Source: an uncultured Candidatus Saccharibacteria bacterium
Lineage (GTDB): Bacteria; Patescibacteriota; Minisyncoccia; Phycocordibacterales; DATDWN01
Assembly: GCA_964576615.1 (NCBI GenBank)
Contig: CAZNUU010000001.1
Location: 95,309-159,308 of the forward strand
Direction of reading: 5' to 3'
Length of the DNA stretch: 64,000 bases
The translations under genes were made by a program, and so were the position numbers. This document shows, in pieces, positions 3,835 through 54,879 of this stretch. Below the pieces are notes generated by a model, which made no database searches, was not told the DNA's origin, and worked only from the letters and a program-made list of their open reading frames with translations. Within the stretch, counting starts at the first letter, position 1. Each line of letters opens with the position of its first letter.

Positions 3835-4476
3835 ATCAAACATCCACCACTCTTCACTTTGATGAGGAATCATGTGAGAATGAACTATTCTATAGTCATA
3901 CTCTTTAACCATACTATGAAATTTTTCAATCGAACCACCGATGTTGACCCAACATGCGTAAATAGTTCCTTCTTTATTTAAATAATTTTTGGCAACTTGC
4001 AAAAAACGACGAAAAGTATTGAACCCGGGATCATAGATTGCTTTTTCGCGCAGCTCATTTACAGGAGCATCAATAGAGGGTAAATAAGCAACGATTGAAT
4101 CAAACTTTTCGAAAATATTTTGAAATAGATCCGATTCAATTACTTTAGATTTTGTGACACTATATTTTTTAAAATTTTCGTTTGTGTTCCCACATGCCCA
4201 AGGGTTAATGTCGACTGCCACCACTTCTCTTTCACCAGCCTGGTGAGCAATAATGCCTTGAATTCCTGTTCCCGACCCCATGTCCAAAACTTTCTTATCT
4301 CTGTACATTAAAATATTTTTTGGAGAGACACCTTCTATTTTTGAAATCTGCCTAGGCACAAACACATTTGGAAAAACAACGAGTCTAAATCCACGATAAA
4401 TTATTTCTTGCTCTTTATCGTAGAAGTGCTTGTGCACTTGTGCACCTTTGGCTGATCGTGTTCTTACCTGCGTCAT
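3826..4476 (-). CDS. Class I SAM-dependent methyltransferase (small-domain MTase)
   Basis: VLDMGSGTGIQGI motif I, VVAVDINP post-I and FDSIVAYLPS motif IV-like segment. Confidence 0.75.
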   Translation of the reverse strand: MTQVRTRSAKGAQVHKHFYDKEQEIIYRGFRLVVFPNVFVPRQISKIEGVSPKNILMYRDKKVLDMGSGTGIQGIIAHQAGEREVVAVDINPWACGNTNENFKKYSVTKSKVIESDLFQNIFEKFDSIVAYLPSIDAPVNELREKAIYDPGFNTFRRFLQVAKNYLNKEGTIYACWVNIGGSIEKFHSMVKEYDYRIVHSHMIPHQSEEWWMFDLR

Positions 4477-4932: not shown

Positions 4933-7900
4933 TTAATGATCACGCCACCTTGATTTCTTTTCATACGCCTAAATAGTTTGTAGCTTTTCTTGGGCCTGTA
5001 CCTTACAAAGAGATTATCGATTACCTCATCATCTGGTATTGCCTCAATGCTGCCATGTTCCTTCTTCATCCCCTCCCCCTTGGCAATAATCTCTTGCTCC
5101 TCAACATATGTCTTTTGATCTTCCTCGTTAAAATCGATATGAAACTGCTTACCGCCTAGTGAAAAATCAGTAATTAGTCTTCTAGAATCTTTTAACCCTG
5201 CACCTTTTTTCGATTTCTTCGCTCGTCTTTTAATTTTCTCGCCTTTCTCGTTTACCTCGATAAGCTTAAAACTATTAGGCTCTCCTTTGGACATGTGGCC
5301 AACAAAGTCCTCGACAGAAAAATTATCATCAATATTTTCAACTTTCTCCAAAGTAATGAATTTAGACTGATAGGATTTCCCGACAACAATCTTCCCGGTA
5401 TAGTCCTCGACCACCTTAAAACCAAGCACTCTTATGTTTTGCTTAAAACCTTCCCAATCGCTAAAGTCATCTGTGTGAACAAGATCAATAATAGCTCTCC
5501 CCCCAACTTTCAAAACTCTGGACATCTCCTTCAGAACTTCCACCCGATCAATCCTACCTTTTGTCGGTTTGAAGTCAAAATAATGCAATGCGAATGTTAG
5601 ATTTAGATAATCAAATGAATTATTTTCGAACGGCAAACGAGTTAGCTGCCCTATGACCCTTTTCATACCTTCTTCTTTTTTAAAATGAGCTGGGTTAATA
5701 TCTGTGGCTGTAATTCTCCCAGCCAGTTCATCCCCACTATGCCTCTTTAACATCTCCGGTCCCGATGCTAGATCTAATATGCTTAAGCTATCAACGGGTT
5801 CGCCATTGTCTTCTATAAACTTTTTCAGAACAGTAGTAGCTATTCTGTTGGCATTCGACTGATAGTTACGTCTGCCTAATTCTTGGTAGGCATCCGCATA
5901 CTCTTCTCCTCTGGTCATCTCTTTACCTTGGATATCGAGATAACGCATGAATTCTTTTTCTCCAATCTCCCAAACTTCGCCGAATATTTGCATCAATTTT
6001 TCCCACTTGTTGAAATAATACCTTGCGAGTTCCGGATTAATTTCCTTATTCTCATCTTGATCTTCTGTCTTTTCAATTATTTCTCTCTCAAGTTCTGTCA
6101 AAGGAACTCCGCGGAGCAATTTTTCCACAGCTCTCTTTTTCATGGCGATAAATTGGTGAATCCCTTCTTCAATAGTACCCTTACCAATAAAAGTTTTGCT
6201 CTCGAGCTCATGCTTCAATCCGGGACGATAAACACGAGCTAGCTGTTGAGCTTTGATGTATTCAGTCCATGGCTCGTTATAAAAATAAACCATCTCCCCA
6301 CCTGAAAAATCAACTCCTTCGCTAGCTGTTTGACCTGAGACAACAACCAACATTTTTTCATCTGAACTATTCAACCTATCTTGAATTTCTTGTCTTGTCT
6401 TCTTTGAAGTATTCTTTTCACCCTCGATAATTTCAACATTTACATTCGGTGGTAAATTTATTTTTTCAATAATTGAACCGGGCCCTCGAATTATATTTTC
6501 AACATAATCATTAACGAACATAACAATTTTGTCGACCTTTTGAAAATCATCCTGTAATTCCTTCTCTACTCTCTTAGCTTTTGAGCAAATCACCCCTGGG
6601 GTCGGATCTACTATTTCGGGGTTCATTAGAAACTGGCGTAGTTTTTGGATTTTTTGTGTCGCGGTAAGCTCATCCTCTTCTTCCAAAATCGCCCCATACA
6701 CATCTCTCTCTAATTCAGTTAAATCTACATAAATTGGTTCATGTTCTATATGCTGGGGCATCTCAACACTCTCTCTCAAACTTTTCATCTGCATTCTAGG
6801 AACAAGCAGACTTCTCAGATCTATGAGATCACCGTTTATAATACTCCTGACCATCTCAGAGTTTTTCATTTCATTAAATTTCTCCGGATAAAGTAATCTT
6901 AGTATTAGAGCAACATCCTCGATCTTGTTTGGTACTGGAGTACCAGATAAAATAGCTAAGTATTTATCGTCCCCTTCAATTTTCTTAGCTAAAGAAAGCA
7001 GGAGCTGCGACCTTACCCCCTCATTTACATTTTTAAACTTGTGAACCTCGTCTACAATTAGCATACCTGGGTCAAGCTTCATGAGCTCAGTGGTATACTC
7101 CTCTGTCATTCTTTCGTGGGAGATAACTATATAATCATAAGTTGATGTATCCCGCTGTAGATCTTCTATACTTTCTACAACTAAAACGCTTGGATTCTCT
7201 CCAGGTTTAAAATAGGTGTGCAGATAACCTTTCTTTTTTTTATTATCCACCCAAGTTGAAACTACATTGCTAGGTACAACAACTAGAGCCTGTTTAATAC
7301 CGAGTGATTCTTTGGTTAAGATCGCAGACGCACTTTTGCCGAGACCCATTTCATCCGCGATTAGTATTTTCTTTTTATCTGAAAGCTCTCTTATATTTAT
7401 ACGCTGGTTTAGATCTGGAAAATCTCTCCCCTCTTTCAGTCCTAGAACTATTTTCTCTGGTTTTTCTATAGACAATAGTCCTGAGTAATACTTTTCAAGT
7501 TCAGTGATAACAAAATCGATATCTGTACTTCCTAGATTCGCTGACTTTTGTCTTACCCCCCCGATATATTCCTCAATGATTTCCTTGTCTTGCCTGTCTT
7601 TATTTTTTCTCTTTTCGAGGTGGTAATATTCCAGACAAGCTTCTTTCATTATCTCAAGAAGCCCTTCGCGTAACTTCGGATCTTTGACAAACTCAACTGC
7701 AATTGGTAAATCATCCACTCTGAAGCCATGCCTTACAACCAAAAAATCTCCGATGTAGTCCGCCATAAGACTTTTAACATATTCCTCTTTGACTGGAAGA
7801 CCTCGAAACTCTGGCCTAAATTTGTATAGAATATCTAGGACTTTGGATGGACCAAAGAGCCCGATAAGACTTCTAAACTGCTGGGCAGTTAAGCTATCGC

Positions 7901-24780: not shown

Positions 24781-24870
24781 GTGACCAAAACAAAAAAAGC
24801 GGCACAAACCGACGGCGAGATATATGTGAAGGCGATCAAGCCGATTCTTATCGGCAAGAGGAAAACCTGA
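24781..24870 (+). CDS. 29-aa micro-ORF, candidate leader or small protein
   Basis: GGAGGG SD 3 nt upstream of GTG 24781. Its TGA stop overlaps the ATG of the next gene (TGATG). Translation is MTKTKKAAQTDGEIYVKAIKPILIGKRKT. Confidence 0.3.
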   Translation: MTKTKKAAQTDGEIYVKAIKPILIGKRKT

Positions 24871-25064
24871 TGAAGCGATTCCCTGATTGGCCAGAAGACC
24901 CGGTTGGAGTGATCTCGGCCAAGTATGGCTGGGACCGCTCAACAACCTTGCAGAAGATCCGACGGACCAAGCAGATCCTGGGCCTCACATCCGTTTTCGA
25001 CGCAGCCGATTTCTTGCTGGCGACTTACATACCCAAGCAGGAAATCAGCATCAGCACCGAGTAA
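24870..25064 (+). CDS. Hypothetical small protein (GC-rich cassette)
   Basis: Translationally coupled to the micro-ORF. GC-rich. Terminator follows. Confidence 0.45.
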   Translation: MKRFPDWPEDPVGVISAKYGWDRSTTLQKIRRTKQILGLTSVFDAADFLLATYIPKQEISISTE

Positions 25065-25155: not shown

Positions 25156-25341
25156 ATGAGGTACAAAATACCTGACAGTGTGAGTCGAGTTGCTCGTCGC
25201 CATAGCTGGGGCAGAGCAACGGCAAGGCGGCGAATCGTTGCCTTTGCAAAGGACCATGGCTTTACGATTCTCGAAGCTATCGAATGTCTAATGGTCATCC
25301 AGCCCAGAAAGTTGGGCGAGAACCTAATTCTTCAGTTCTGA
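25156..25341 (+). CDS. Hypothetical small basic protein (GC-rich cassette)
   Basis: GGAGAGAAC SD before the ATG. Arg-rich sequence. Followed by a bidirectional terminator. Confidence 0.45.
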   Translation: MRYKIPDSVSRVARRHSWGRATARRRIVAFAKDHGFTILEAIECLMVIQPRKLGENLILQF

Positions 25342-27275: not shown

Positions 27276-28517
27276 CTATTTTGAAAGAATTTCTAAAGCT
27301 TTTTCCATCTGGGTATCCGTACCTTTCTTAAACAAATCCTCATCCAGTTTTACAACTACATCCGGAGTTAGACCTTGGTGCGAAATAGAAATCCCGTTTG
27401 GAGTAAGCCATCTTGCTACAGTTACCTTGAGCGAAGTCTTGTCAGTAATATCAACTAATTCCTGAACCGAACCTTTGCCAAAGGACTGCACTCCAACAAG
27501 TTTTGCCACGCCGTGATCATGCAGGGCACCAGAGAGAATCTCCGATGCACTAGCTGAACCGCCATCAATTAGGACCACTAGTTTTAGTTTGTCGCTGAAA
27601 ATATTGTAACCTTTGCTCCTGAAAATCTGATTCTCGGCTTTGTTTCTAAAGTCTTCCTGAACAATCACCTGCCCGGTTGGTAAAAACCAAGATGCCATAT
27701 CTTGGGCTGCTTCGAGGTAACCCCCGGGGTTGCCTCTCAAGTCTATGATCAATTTATACTTCCCGGACTGAACAAAATCACGCAAGGCATTTCGGAAAAG
27801 ATTTGGTGAAATAGCCGAGAAACTATAAAGGTGGATTACAAAAACATCTCCTTTCGTTTCTGTATCAACTGTCGGCATATTTATAACATCTCGTGTAATG
27901 CTAAGCTCAAATGGTTCCTTCACCCCTGCTCTCGCGAATGTAATTTTAACTGTTGTACCTTTTTTACCCCGGATAAGTTTTATGGCCTCCTCTGTGTTAA
28001 GAGAGCTAGTAACTGTATCATCAATTTTAAGAACTTGATCTCCAGCTTTTACCCCCGCCCTGTAAGCCGGCGTATCTTTTATTGGAGCAATAACTGTTAA
28101 GACTCCATCCTTCATCCCAACTTCCATACCAATCCCTTCGATAGTACCGCTTATTTCCTCGTTGAAACTTTTAGATTCTGCAGGTGGAAAAAAGATAGTA
28201 TATGGATCACCTAATGACGAGACCATCCCCGATATCGCGCCGTAAACTCTGGTCTGATCATCTACTTTTTCCGGCGTAGTGCTGCTGGATGGCAGATATT
28301 TTTCATTAATTATATTCCAAGCTTTCCAGAAAGGCGCAAAATCAACCTGGCTAGAGGAGGTATCGTCCTTGTTTATTATTGTGCTAATTTTGGACTCAGC
28401 TGGTAAATTGTTTTTGCCAGTATAAAAACCAGAAACAAACGCCCCCACTACAAGTAGGAGGGTTACAATTACATACGAGCGATATTTCGGAAAATCCGTC
28501 ATTAATTTTATCCGCAC
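27276..28517 (-). CDS. ctpA: Carboxyl-terminal processing protease (S41 family) with PDZ domain
   Basis: PDZ segment, LRGNPGGYL motif, catalytic Ser GSASASEIL and Lys FGKGS. Confidence 0.85.
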   Translation of the reverse strand: MRIKLMTDFPKYRSYVIVTLLLVVGAFVSGFYTGKNNLPAESKISTIINKDDTSSSQVDFAPFWKAWNIINEKYLPSSSTTPEKVDDQTRVYGAISGMVSSLGDPYTIFFPPAESKSFNEEISGTIEGIGMEVGMKDGVLTVIAPIKDTPAYRAGVKAGDQVLKIDDTVTSSLNTEEAIKLIRGKKGTTVKITFARAGVKEPFELSITRDVINMPTVDTETKGDVFVIHLYSFSAISPNLFRNALRDFVQSGKYKLIIDLRGNPGGYLEAAQDMASWFLPTGQVIVQEDFRNKAENQIFRSKGYNIFSDKLKLVVLIDGGSASASEILSGALHDHGVAKLVGVQSFGKGSVQELVDITDKTSLKVTVARWLTPNGISISHQGLTPDVVVKLDEDLFKKGTDTQMEKALEILSK

Positions 28518-28694
28518 ACTAAATTTGGCTTAGTTGCAGGTGTTTTGTAAAGATTGAATAAATTGTGTTTTTGTCAAGAATCACAGACATACAACGCATA
28601 GGTAATTGGCAACAAAAACACGAAGCTAAAATTAGTGTGCGGATTAATTATCTCACCCTATTAAAGTTTTTTCAACAACAAAATCTCGTCGAGT

Positions 28695-28846
28695 CATGTT
28701 TCGAGGAGAGCCTTGAGAGCGCACTTTCGCAATCACGAGGTGAGAAGCGGAGCTTCGCAAGACCTTGAGCACGTAGTAGCGAAAGGTGTACAGCTTCTGT
28801 AAGAAGATTTTTAGCAAGAAAATATCCGTGCTCTCTGAGAAACATG
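28695..28846 (+). repeat. Dispersed structured repeat, copy 1 (modules A-B-C, 152 nt)
   Basis: Near-identical to 54716..54867. The outer arms CATGTTTCGAGGAGAGC and GCTCTCTGAGAAACATG are largely complementary. A 67-nt core B (28741..28807) is shared with 47147..47213. Confidence 0.6.
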
Positions 28847-28899
28847 ATGAGAAAGAGATTCCGATTGTGGTCTAATATTTCATACGATATAATTTAAAG

Positions 28900-35143: not shown

Positions 35144-35500
35144 CCTATTAGTATAACAAAAAAATTTTACAGATAAAAAGAAAAGAGGCCCTGCAGTGAC
35201 GCGGAGCCCCCAACGTCCCCCAGAGGTGACGGTCAAGCTGCATGTCGAGTGGACACGCGATTTTGTGTTGTGGTGTCCTCGGCTTGCGCCCAGAACTCCT
35301 CGAGTTCATTTTCGGGTGTGACCCCGAACCTGAGACCCAAGACCTCAACCCATCCTCGCTGCGCCCATCGGCCGCTGCTTGAACCGTTCACTCCTGTGGA
35401 ACATTGACAACTATATACCCATGAAAAAATAAAGTCAACATTTTTTTACAACAGAAAACAAATTATTAATGTTTGTCAAAATATCTAAAATTTGTCGAAC

Positions 35501-35589
35501 CATGTTTCGAAGAGAGCCTTGCGAGCGCGACTGGCGCGAGCACGAGGAATTTTTCAGCAGAAAAATATCCGTGCTCTCTGAGAAATATG
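35501..35589 (+). repeat. Structured repeat, copy 2 (modules A-C only, core B absent)
   Basis: CATGTTTCGAAGAGAGCCTTGCGAGCGCGACTGGCGCGAGCACGAGG is joined directly to the C arm ...ATCCGTGCTCTCTGAGAAATATG. Confidence 0.5.
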
Positions 35590-35688
35590 GTGAGAAAAAA
35601 TTTTAGATATTCAGGTCTATAGTTCTTTCTCACACTTTTCTTTTTGGAAACACTCATCTTTTCCAGCGAAAAGACTCGTTCGGTCCTC

Positions 35689-35737
35689 GGCCTCTACTTG
35701 TCAAGAAAGGTGCCTTGACAAGACCATGCTAGAGGCC
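35689..35737. repeat. REP-like nested palindrome (inverted copy of 47109..47133)
   Basis: GGCCTCTA ... CTTGTCAAG-AAAGGTGC-CTTGACAAG ... TAGAGGCC. Confidence 0.4.
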
Positions 35738-35775
35738 TGCGGATGTTCCAAAAAGGAAAAGTGTTCAACGAAACC

Positions 35776-46317: not shown

Positions 46318-47069
46318 TGAACAAAAAAATAATTTTAAACGTCCCGGAGAAACATCTGCCTATTGAACCCCTCACCAAAAAGGAACTGCACGACACGGCG
46401 GTGGAGAGAGTACACCTCATATCCCGAGAATTCACAGATGGCTTTAATTTCCTGAGCAAATACCCAAAATCTGTGACGATCTTCGGTGGAACGCGCTTTA
46501 AGGAAACTGACCCGGAATACGAGAAGGCGAATTCCCTAGCAAAAAAAATCTCAAGTGAACTGAAATACACCATTTTCACAGGTGGCGGGCCTGGAATCAT
46601 GGAGGCGGCAAATCGGGGGGCAAAAGACGCTGGAGGTGGATCAATTGGAGTAACAATTGAGCTAGAGCGCCACCAAGTTAGAAACCAATACTTAACTGAT
46701 CATATTAGCTTTCATTACTTCTTTTCTAGAAAAGTCTGCTTGGCATTTTCTGCTGAAGCTTACATATTCTTCCCGGGTGGTTTTGGAACACTAGATGAGT
46801 TTTTCGAGATTATTACCCTGGTTCAGACAAAAAAGATCGAGAGGGTGCCAATTGTATTGGTAGGCAGCGAATACTGGAATGCTCTTGAAACCTTCATGAG
46901 AAAGGAACTGCTCAACAGAAGTACAGTGGATGAGGATGACTTGAACCTTTTTACTATTACTGATGACGAAGACCAGATTGTAGAAATAATAAAAAACGCT
47001 CCGATCCATGTTGGTGTTAGATTTACGCATAAAAACCTGGAGAAATCAGGAATTGTAGTGGAGAATTAG
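46318..47069 (+). CDS. LOG family protein (Rossmann-fold nucleotide-binding, TIGR00730-type)
   Basis: GGGPGIMEAANRGA and PGGFGTLDEF motifs. Start taken at the internal Met MNKK. Confidence 0.85.
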
Positions 47070-47261
47070 GGTTCTTGTTTTCGAGCCTCCGCAGGCCGCA
47101 AACACGGTTTTGTCAAGGCACCTTTCTTGACAAATTGTGGCCGAGGTGAGAAGCGGAGCTTCGCAAGACCTTGAGCACGAAGTAGCGAAAGGTGTACAGC
47201 TTCAGTAAGAAGAGCCGAGAGCTTCGCTGGAAGCTTGAGGGTAGCAAGAAAACAAGAACCC
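47069..47261. mobile_element. MITE-like non-coding element with 14-bp terminal inverted repeats
   Basis: TIRs GGGTTCTTGTTTTC and GAAAACAAGAACCC. Contains a REP-like palindrome (47109..47133) and a core-B copy (47147..47213). Exactly fills the gap between convergent stop codons. Confidence 0.5.
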
Positions 47262-47264
47262 CAA

Positions 47265-47474
47265 TTACGACTTGGATGTTTTTTGTATATCTTTCTTTAT
47301 CTCTTTGAATTCGTTTTCAATTTGGGAGAGCCTTTCTCTGGATTGTTTTATTAAATATCCTCCTTCCTTTACATATTCTAGTGCTTTTTCAATATCTAAG
47401 TCTGACTGATTATCGAACCAGGACACAATCTGATTTATTTTTTTCAAATTTTCGCTTAAGTTATTTTTTTTCAT
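47265..47474 (-). CDS. xseB: Exodeoxyribonuclease VII small subunit
   Basis: Small helical protein immediately downstream of xseA and overlapping it by 4 nt. Confidence 0.75.
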   Translation of the reverse strand: MKKNNLSENLKKINQIVSWFDNQSDLDIEKALEYVKEGGYLIKQSRERLSQIENEFKEIKKDIQKTSKS

Positions 47475-53840: not shown

Positions 53841-53860
53841 ATTATTTTTTTATCCGCACA

Positions 53861-54127
53861 CTAATTCTCGTTTTGCGCTAGTGTACTTCTTAACCTACTT
53901 TTTAATTGGTTCCTGGCTTGTCCTCTTAATTTTAACATCTTTTCCCTCCTACGCGCATCATGCTCTGCCTTATATGCTTCGTAATAAATCAAATTATATG
54001 GTCCTTTGAGTCTGGTAGACTCGACCTTACCCTTATTATGTTCTATCATCCTTCTCTTTAAATTATTGGTAGAACCAATATAGAATTCACTCGACTTAGG
54101 ATTATTTAGAACATAGACATAGAACAT
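53861..54127 (-). CDS. GIY-YIG nuclease superfamily small protein
   Basis: FYVYVL...YIGSTNNLKRRMIEHN matches the GIY-YIG motif. Confidence 0.8.
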   Translation of the reverse strand: MFYVYVLNNPKSSEFYIGSTNNLKRRMIEHNKGKVESTRLKGPYNLIYYEAYKAEHDARRREKMLKLRGQARNQLKSRLRSTLAQNEN

Positions 54128-54140
54128 AATAAAACGAGAT

Positions 54141-54689
54141 TTAGTGTGCGGATGAATTATCTTTTAATAAATCCGCGTATTCCTTCTGCACCTTCTCCAA
54201 TTTCGGGCTTATCACCAACTGACAATAGGCTGCATCAGGATTTTTAGCATAATAATCTTGATGATAATTTTCAGCCACATAAAAAACATCTAATGGCAGG
54301 ACCTCCGTAACGACTGGTTTACCTTCCTTAGTAGAACTATTGAGTTCTTTTATAAAATCTTCTGAAATCTTTTTTTGCTCGGGAGTGGTATAGAAAATTG
54401 CTGACTTGTATTGAGTTCCGACATCATTACCTTGCCGATTTAAAGTTGTCGGATCATGGGAAGCAAAAAAAATAGTAAGGAGTGTTTTATATTGAACCTT
54501 AGTTGGATCAAATTCAACTTTTACTGATTCTGTATGACCAGTTGTACCAGTGCTAACTTGTTCGTAAGTAGGATTTTTGGTTGTACCCCCCGTATACCCC
54601 GGCAAAACACTAGAAACACCCTTTAGCATCTTAAAAACAGCCTCGGTACACCAAAAACAACCACCCCCAAAAACTGCTGTCTCTTTCAT
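54141..54689 (-). CDS. msrA: Peptide-methionine (S)-S-oxide reductase
   Basis: GGGCFWCTEAVF active site. Confidence 0.9.
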   Translation of the reverse strand: MKETAVFGGGCFWCTEAVFKMLKGVSSVLPGYTGGTTKNPTYEQVSTGTTGHTESVKVEFDPTKVQYKTLLTIFFASHDPTTLNRQGNDVGTQYKSAIFYTTPEQKKISEDFIKELNSSTKEGKPVVTEVLPLDVFYVAENYHQDYYAKNPDAAYCQLVISPKLEKVQKEYADLLKDNSSAH

Positions 54690-54715
54690 GAAATTATTAT
54701 AACACTAAAACGAAC

Positions 54716-54867
54716 CATGTCGTGAAGAAAGCCTTGGGAGCGCACTTTCGCGAACACGAGGTGAGAAGCGAAGCTTCGCAAGACCTTGAGCACGTAGTAG
54801 CGAAAGGTGTACAGCTTCTGTAAGAAGACTTTCAGCAGAAATTTATCCGTGCTTTCTTCACGACATG
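54716..54867 (+). repeat. Structured repeat, copy 3 (modules A-B-C, 152 nt)
   Basis: Outer arms CATGTCGTGAAGAAAGC and GCTTTCTTCACGACATG are perfectly complementary over 17 bp. Compensatory changes relative to copy 1. Confidence 0.6.
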
Positions 54868-54879
54868 GTGAGTACACTC

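Follow-up and report, generated by a model that had tools for sequence, protein, structure and literature searches.

Composite palindromic repeats carrying a nested structured module in the intergenic DNA of a Patescibacteria genome

The 64,000-nt stretch of DNA analyzed here (the window) contains two unrelated families of small palindromic, non-coding repeats, X (three copies) and Y (two copies), and a nested module, B, that is found in copies of both. We interpret these as BOX/ERIC-like composite small interspersed mobile repeats in which B is an independently mobile module, with a probability of roughly 0.6. X is approximately 113 nt long without B and 176 nt with it, and Y is approximately 160 to 200 nt. 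All three X and both Y copies in the 64 kb are intergenic, as the earlier note on this DNA had reported for its repeats. X and Y insert in the intergenic DNA of a Patescibacteria (Minisyncoccia-like) genome, and their presence varies among relatives. They resemble MITEs, or small interspersed mobile repeats, in being short, dispersed, and intergenic, with paired ends and insertion polymorphism.

X copy 1 (28683..28862, + strand) carries B and has its core stem at 28695-28846. It matched R2, a covariance model of X without B, at 28683-28858 (68.9 bits), and its stem runs outwards through a tandem G.A motif (CGAGU/AUGAG) and then ATCTC/GAGAT. X copy 2 (35489..35601, +) lacks B (R2, 107.7 bits), and X copy 3 (54704..54879, +) carries it (R2, 72.9 bits). 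Fold z-scores against shuffles were -2.5 for copy 1, -5.45 for copy 2, and -4.45 for copy 3. The earlier note described copies 1 and 3 as 152-nt repeats (28695-28846 and 54716-54867) with an identical 67-nt core; coordinates, length, and content were correct, but the cores agree at 66 of 67 positions, with a G to A change at core position 10 of copy 3. Copy 2 (35501-35589) keeps the arms and lacks the core, as described, reading CACGAGG-AA-TTTTT where the others have 67 nt between CACGAGG and TTTTT. The core also recurs at 47147-47213, in a different palindromic element, with two differences. A 24-nt core probe (up to three mismatches) found three matches in the window versus none expected from 100 shuffles. 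X copies 1 and 3 (repeat family D2) are 85% identical across 162 nt, and their arms have indeed diverged, being only 83% (left) and 73% (right) identical.

The internal order of X is best seen in copy 2. The outer stem (17-24 bp) extends outwards via a conserved tandem G.A motif (CGAAC...GUGAG), and inside it are hairpin hpA (GA-GCGC-loop-GCGC-GA), CACGAGG, hairpin hpC (AAUUUUYC-AGCA-GRAAAAU), and AUCCGUG. B lies exactly between CACGAGG and hpC. Copy 3 forms the perfect 17-bp stem that had been proposed (CATGTCGTGAAGAAAGC / GCTTTCTTCACGACATG), in which four positions differ from copy 1 on both strands, and the covariation of the arms became stronger as copies were added. Among six X copies, 17 of the 24 pairs of the outer stem and 5 of the 7 in hpC were doubly changed; with nine copies from five sequence sources (the window and four loci), 18 of 21 outer pairs had changed on both sides and 91% of cells pair. 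The stems of the six copies contain approximately 10 G.U pairs and no A.C pairs; therefore, the given strand is the folding strand of X. Repeats of the AAATTT type (7-9 nt) surround three of six X copies and may belong to the inverted termini, and the X copies of locus L070 have no flanking repeats of the target-site type. The hpA of the B-bearing X copies (28714-28735 and 54735-54756) reads GCGCACUUUCGC, which is complementary to GCGAAAGGUG of B (28781-28790) and pairs with it in MFE folds; the B-less copy has GCGC-GACUG-GCGC in this place.

Y copy 1 (Y1; 47066..47266, +) has terminal arms GGGTTCTTGTTTTC / GAAAACAAGAACCC and a fold z-score of -5.79, and carries B after GGCCGAGG. Y copy 2 (Y2; approximately 35615..35775, - strand) is inverted and lacks B, with an empty B site at GGCCGAGG / ACCGAACGAG. 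Of its sequence, 69 nt are 84% complementary to 47078-47146 (inverted repeat I1). Y arms are 14 bp, and in Y2 approximately 38 nt form an imperfect inverted repeat. The outer stems of Y1 and Y2 differ in sequence and have kept their complementarity.

B is a discrete 66-78-nt module of three hairpins separated by invariant single-stranded joints. Its general layout is GUGA, hp1 (variable), GCAAG, hp2, GUAC(A/C)G, and hp3. The second hairpin, ACCUU-GA-GCAC-loop-GUGC-GA-AAGGU, is nearly invariant and contains a symmetric tandem G.A loop, while hp3 has 5-6 bp and a GUA triloop. In X copy 1 the module (28739..28808, +) matched R1, a covariance model of B, with 77.7 bits; the inserted unit is approximately 28741-28806 and consists of GUGA, hp1 GAAGC-GGA-GCUUC, GCAAG, hp2 ACCUU-GA-GC..GC-GA-AAGGU, GUACAG, and hp3 CUUCU-GUA-AGAAG. 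The modules in X copy 3 (54760..54829, +) and Y1 (47145..47214, +; 65/67 compared to X copy 1) scored 77.2 and 71.0 bits, respectively. Ten B sequences had 90% of cells paired versus 26-55% in slid registers, and nine pairs were doubly changed. The earlier note had proposed a covariance model as a check; in 67 distinct sequences, 92% of cells were paired versus 30-55% when slid, 21 of 23 pairs showed compensatory double changes, and none of 500 shuffles reached the observed covariation. Eight of the nine top column pairs by mutual information are proposed base pairs, and the mutual-information columns revealed no tertiary covariation outside the helices. Counts of G.U versus A.C inside B showed no strand bias and are uninformative on the functional strand. 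Diverged variants include some with a long hp2 (ACUCAUUGAGGAAUUUU...AAAAUACCCAAUGAGU) and B'-C composites, in which the hpC module of X makes up the 3' half. Thus X, B, and the variants share modules.

B has a defined insertion site directly behind a purine-rich GAG(G) motif, CGAGG^A in both X and Y, and each host is also known empty (X copies 1 and 3 versus copy 2; Y1 versus Y2 and Y3). Zero to three nucleotides are lost at insertion, and no target duplication is detectable. Filled junctions read GAGG-(B)-A in X and Y, GUAGAG-(B)-UUCGACUGA versus intact GUAGAG-CA-UUCGACUGA in tRNA-Ile, and AACGGG-(B)-GACCUC versus intact AACGGG-UGU-GACCUC in 5S. R-R-G precedes UGAG in 35 distinct B contexts, frequently as CGAGG; the empty sites have these bases as well, which reflects a target preference. 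The three B copies in the window have in common a derived short hp1 (GAAGC-GGA-GCUUC) even though their hosts are unrelated, so B has moved or been homogenized recently and independently of its hosts. They are 97-99% identical, compared to 73-83% for the X arms. At L032, both B copies have an A-U base of hp1 in common. Every host element seen has either no canonical B or one, and tandem B-like units were found only beside tRNA-Ser in L058.

The distribution of B extends well beyond this genome. An exact 20-mer scan (one genome per species) returned 12 loci, 10 of them true B, from MAGs of Saccharibacteria, Kaiserbacteria, Nomurabacteria, the Parcubacteria group, and unclassified bacteria. The two non-CPR matches (Planctomycetota and Bacteroidales contigs) were excluded by the covariance model as chance. 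A metagenome scan found B on 55 contigs, and R1 matches numbered 89, of which 67 are distinct sequences. Identity of 20-27 nt is kept exactly across deeply divergent CPR classes. IMG/VR contained no exact B match, and a phage origin was set aside. Rfam 15, a search that the earlier note had called for, yielded no family at gathering score in the window and 20 loci and nothing at E<=10 on X copy 1; weak matches far below gathering score in the L064 and L024 composites were taken as chance. No publication containing B sequence strings describes the element, those matched being unrelated, none of the papers listed connects MITEs or ribozymes to Patescibacteria, and B-type inserts are unmentioned in the paper on tRNA group I introns (PMC13011429). 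Many Nomurabacteria-like contigs share a conserved, composite, non-coding region of approximately 400 nt in which B'-C, canonical B, and additional GC-rich hairpins are combined; it was seen at L003, L010, L057, L064 (7000-7450, minus), and approximately 20 metagenome loci, often near tRNA-Ser, and matches nothing in Rfam.

Elsewhere among CPR genomes, B is found by itself (beside a helicase gene in L070, for example), at the tips of many unrelated hairpins, and within incomplete tRNA and 5S gene copies, and both orientations are represented. Occurrence of solo, hairpin-tip, and tRNA/5S copies in both orientations indicates insertion at the DNA level and argues against RNA-level invasion. At least 10 of 35 B contexts are within 500 nt of a tRNA, versus roughly 5% expected as estimated from tRNA density. 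Some of these loci are elaborate. Nested tRNA-Ile constructs occur at L030 (2180-2603), L036 (2200-2640), L044 (1380-1800), and L024 (1250-1699, minus), where a tRNA-Ile copy has a sense B at 25/26 and an antisense B-like module at anticodon-loop 35/36. The long hairpin of the B-like module has an intact tRNA-Ile gene at its apex in L030 and L036, and a second copy of the tRNA 3' part comes next. In L025 (3940-4385), the real 5S gene (4120-4225) lies between two 5S half-copies, the 5' one with an antisense B in loop B and the 3' one with a sense B'-C in the helix IV loop; a group I intron is present in the adjacent 23S gene. B-like units directly downstream of tRNA-Ser in L058 (5308-5697; two in tandem) and of tRNA-Arg in L006 (1932-2133) are followed by a direct duplicate (17-22 nt) of the tRNA 3' end. 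The tRNA 3' duplicates after B-like units in L006, L030, L036, and L058 resemble integrase att duplications, and these elements are approximately 110-140 nt. In L032, a B-like module (6593-6681) and a canonical B (7266-7341) lie in sense orientation in the rpsL-rpsG gap and just past rpsG in the str operon.

The CorA protein encoded in the window has a fully identical (100%) counterpart among recorded proteins, and its nearest relatives (68-73%) are from Patescibacteria / 'Minisyncoccia' MAGs; an exact-protein look-up of MsrA returned no record. The gene order S41 protease, CorA, CysS, DnaB is conserved in relatives. The spacer between the S41 protease and CorA genes is 382 nt in the window versus 74 nt in L069, where X and the repeat family Z (below) are both absent, making it an empty site. 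In L070 the same spacer has a Y-family element between 12-nt AGATTTTAAAAT repeats, and in L072 it has another hairpin element. The R2 search also found two B-less X copies in L070 that are identical at 117 of 118 positions and lie at different loci, and L009 has one B-less X approximately 1 kb from a B-bearing X. L068, a short-read assembly made independently, is interrupted within the B module of X copy 1 and at the CACGAGG of X copy 2, an outcome expected of repeats. The earlier note had suggested a composite mini-mobile element with a nested core, and it is borne out by filled and empty core sites in two unrelated host elements, by the outer element missing from orthologous spacers, and by near-identical copies at different loci of a relative. 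No consistent target-site duplication was found for X, and none was detectable for B. Among the ORFs screened, none was identified as a transposase, integrase, or reverse transcriptase with ends like those of the repeats; a Pfam scan of 20 of the approximately 61 window ORFs and 12 ORFs of other loci found no transposases, and no Y1/RAYT gene was among the screened genes.

Neighbors of X and Y in the window (S41 protease, CorA, Ddl, UvrC, MsrA, CAP, LOG, XseA, FAD oxidase, and PAP2) are unrelated housekeeping genes, and this is also true at other loci. A LOG-like gene and xseA converge on Y1. Relative to the genes beside them, the elements lie in either orientation, antisense being the more frequent. 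X copies 2 and 3 are antisense to both neighbors, and copy 1 is between the divergent S41 and corA promoters, outside both transcription units. A consensus scan of the + strand found no sigma-70-like promoter at any X copy, and no terminators or U-tracts. With the folding strand antisense to most neighbors and copy 1 between divergent promoters, co-transcription as a structured RNA is not evident, and the context gives no support to independent sRNA genes. A riboswitch or leader was rejected, as the neighbor genes are unrelated and the orientation is mixed. A promoter-like site for msrA (54696-54723, minus) has a -35-like ACGACA that falls within the left arm of X copy 3 and precedes TG-n-TATAAT, and the ACGACA hexamer was created by the compensatory arm changes of copy 3.

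Alternatively, X, with or without B, would be a family of structured ncRNA genes, small, paralogous, and transcribed independently, if its copies were duplicates rather than transposed, and B would then be a modular functional RNA domain, for example one that binds protein via tandem G.A or k-turn-like motifs. We consider this unlikely. The strong covariation in X and B, the strand-specific wobble in X stems, the tandem G.A motifs conserved in hp2 and the X outer stem, and the deep conservation of the B joints across CPR lineages are all what such genes would predict, and an A-rich, TAAAAT-like motif lies 7-9 nt upstream of several X copies. However, the 3' flank pairs with this motif, which is part of the pre-existing host spacer in copy 1. 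The consensus scan for promoters and terminators, the Rfam search, and the presence of B in both orientations within one tRNA copy also tell against ncRNA genes, and orthologous presence/absence with near-identical copies in one genome is typical of mobile repeats. The covariation claim of the earlier note holds; conserved promoters and terminators were not found, and there is no evidence of a discrete small ncRNA gene. Cis-acting RNA structures kept for host benefit, like REP/BIME or rRNA processing stems, could stabilize transcripts, direct processing by RNase III or RNase P around stable RNAs, or insulate operons from one another, and this appears improbable. Relatives manage without the element at the same spacer, U-tracts are absent, and the mixed, mostly antisense orientation, including that of copies 2 and 3 and the location of copy 1 outside transcription units, is unfavorable. 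Such a role would fit the enrichment of B-like modules beside tRNA, 5S, and rRNA-spacer genes, the intact tRNA-Ile at a hairpin apex in L030 and L036, the antisense B and sense B-like module around 5S in L025 (which could pair together), the sense modules within the rpsL-rpsG operon, and Y1 between convergent genes.

B could also be a tiny catalytic or self-excising RNA, a self-cleaving ribozyme or mini-intron that spreads through RNA loops and reverse transcription. Invariant joints with covarying stems are a ribozyme-like pattern, and the insertion points of B include hairpin loops, the D/anticodon junction and anticodon loop position 35/36 of a tRNA, and loops of 5S. Self-splicing group I introns are unusually abundant in Patescibacteria, tRNA position 35/36 being one of their sites; however, the same source reports that these bacteria lack group II introns, which implies that the reverse transcriptases of such introns are missing too (PMC13011429). 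Rfam ribozyme and intron models were unmatched even at E<=10, insertions antisense to the host RNA (L024 and L025) are unexpected for RNA-level invasion, and B-bearing tRNA and 5S copies are partial or lie beside an intact copy, as if B stays unremoved. We regard a catalytic B as very improbable. Hammerhead, hairpin, twister-sister, SRP, RNase P, tmRNA, and 6S RNAs were considered by eye and rejected; the tandem G.A of hp2 forms a continuous helix with no hammerhead core, and a tmRNA-like 5' end in L024 was unsupported by ARAGORN or Rfam. Two points also count against the mobile reading itself. Compensatory evolution of inverted repeats is unusual for protein-recognized TIRs, and the 20-27-nt identity of B, far above that of typical MITEs, points to a function in the cell or at the RNA level and away from a purely selfish element. 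We propose only tentatively, as a rather doubtful extension, that B and B'/C together are an undescribed CPR-wide structured nucleic-acid module with catalytic or protein-recognition joints that invades hairpins, including those of its own kind and of tRNA and 5S, with 'Russian-doll' nesting.

Under the composite mobile-repeat reading, the hairpin folds of X, Y, and B may be kept by selection on one strand, because X stems have G.U but no A.C pairs and tandem G.A pairs are conserved. The folded strand (RNA, or single-stranded or cruciform DNA) would likely be recognized by a putative trans-acting enzyme for mobilization, with the invariant joints and hp2 of B probably serving as a recognition or tertiary core. 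Effects on neighboring genes, such as promoter spacing and transcript ends, would be side effects.

BOX repeats of pneumococci and S. suis are the closest architectural parallel drawn here. Their boxB is optional and self-folding apart from boxA and boxC, and in S. suis it is common to two flank families, as B is to X and Y (PMC3049150). The modular A-B-C and A-C forms are a likeness of architecture only, with A and C closing a stem and B folding alone in both systems (PMC3049150). Both are intergenic and non-coding, with different repeat families clustered, and BOX repeats are thought to be non-autonomous mobile parasites (PMC3049150, which also names Correia elements). BOX is confined to a few streptococci and its TIRs are similar to those of an IS (PMC3049150), whereas no cognate IS is known for X, Y, or B. 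B also differs in being single, with tandem arrays never seen in host elements, in occurring solo and inside tRNA and 5S copies, and in being conserved, with strong covariation and invariant joints, among CPR lineages of class rank.

ERIC/IRU and Correia (CREE) elements of enterobacteria and Neisseria are imperfect, intergenic palindromes of approximately 100-160 bp, similar to X and Y. Their size classes differ by a discrete internal segment of approximately 50-70 bp, like the presence or absence of B, and ERIC is reported to show compensatory substitutions that preserve its hairpin. We know of no case in which these internal segments are independent, widely conserved structured modules, and to our knowledge neither element has been reported in Patescibacteria. 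Correia elements differ from X, Y, and B in their TA target duplications and defined 26-bp TIRs. IS200/IS605-derived PATEs and REP/RAYT systems use hairpin-dependent, single-strand HUH transposition. They resemble the present elements in strand-specific hairpins with covarying stems and in motif-adjacent insertion without target duplication, as B after GAG(G). They differ in that hp1 and hp3 of B are unrelated in sequence, that B occurs in both orientations within 100 nt, and that the folding strand here is not the one expected to be single-stranded as lagging-strand template. GC skew is negative across 1-64000, placing the window on a single replichore; the genes are mostly on the minus strand, and the three X copies and the B of Y1 are on the plus (C-rich) strand. 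Archaeal BHB introns are a further comparison among mobile introns of stable-RNA genes. Occupation of anticodon loop 35/36 is shared with Patescibacteria tRNA group I introns (PMC13011429), and insertion in other tRNA and 5S loops and nested insertions are shared with mobile stable-RNA introns. B is too small for a group I intron and unmatched by Rfam intron models, and the antisense inserts and the partial or duplicated host copies, which are not restored by splicing, set it apart from mobile introns.

Compared to these systems, B is unusual in its deep CPR conservation, its purine-motif target without duplication, its recursive nesting, and its enrichment at stable-RNA genes. Patescibacteria have tiny, streamlined genomes usually called poor in classical mobile DNA; here, three to four small palindromic insert families crowd single intergenic spacers of such a genome. 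B is common to Saccharibacteria and Parcubacteria-type lineages with ribozyme-like conservation and has no Rfam entry. If B has a dedicated enzyme or is catalytic, it would represent a new mobilization mechanism, and it would help explain fragmented or duplicated tRNA and 5S loci and assembly breaks in CPR MAGs. If it is a hairpin-invading module, it would be a new hairpin-targeting mobile or miniature integrative element, one that might take part in duplicating or processing the stable-RNA genes of ultrasmall bacteria. Even on a conservative reading, R1 and R2 allow practical annotation of a recurrent, unannotated CPR feature.

Other features of the window may be noted. Two small GC-rich ORFs (24870-25064 and 25156-25341; 64 and 61 aa) without a Pfam match are each followed by a GC-rich inverted repeat, a possible terminator, and both lie within a 615-nt gap beside rplU. 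A third repeat family, Z, has terminal inverted repeats of 26-36 nt (TTTATCCGCACACTAA...), with two pairs in the window. The pair at 53849-54156, between msrB and msrA, encloses an ORF for an 88-aa stand-alone GIY-YIG nuclease (53861-54127, minus), and the inverted repeats of this ORF are its own, different from the ends of X and Y. The pair at 28507-28647 delimits an ORF-less, 141-nt copy directly next to X copy 1; the syntenic L069 spacer lacks this copy. Z looks like a TIR-bounded GIY-YIG mini-element with a miniature derivative, and both B-bearing X copies sit 40-560 nt from a Z copy.
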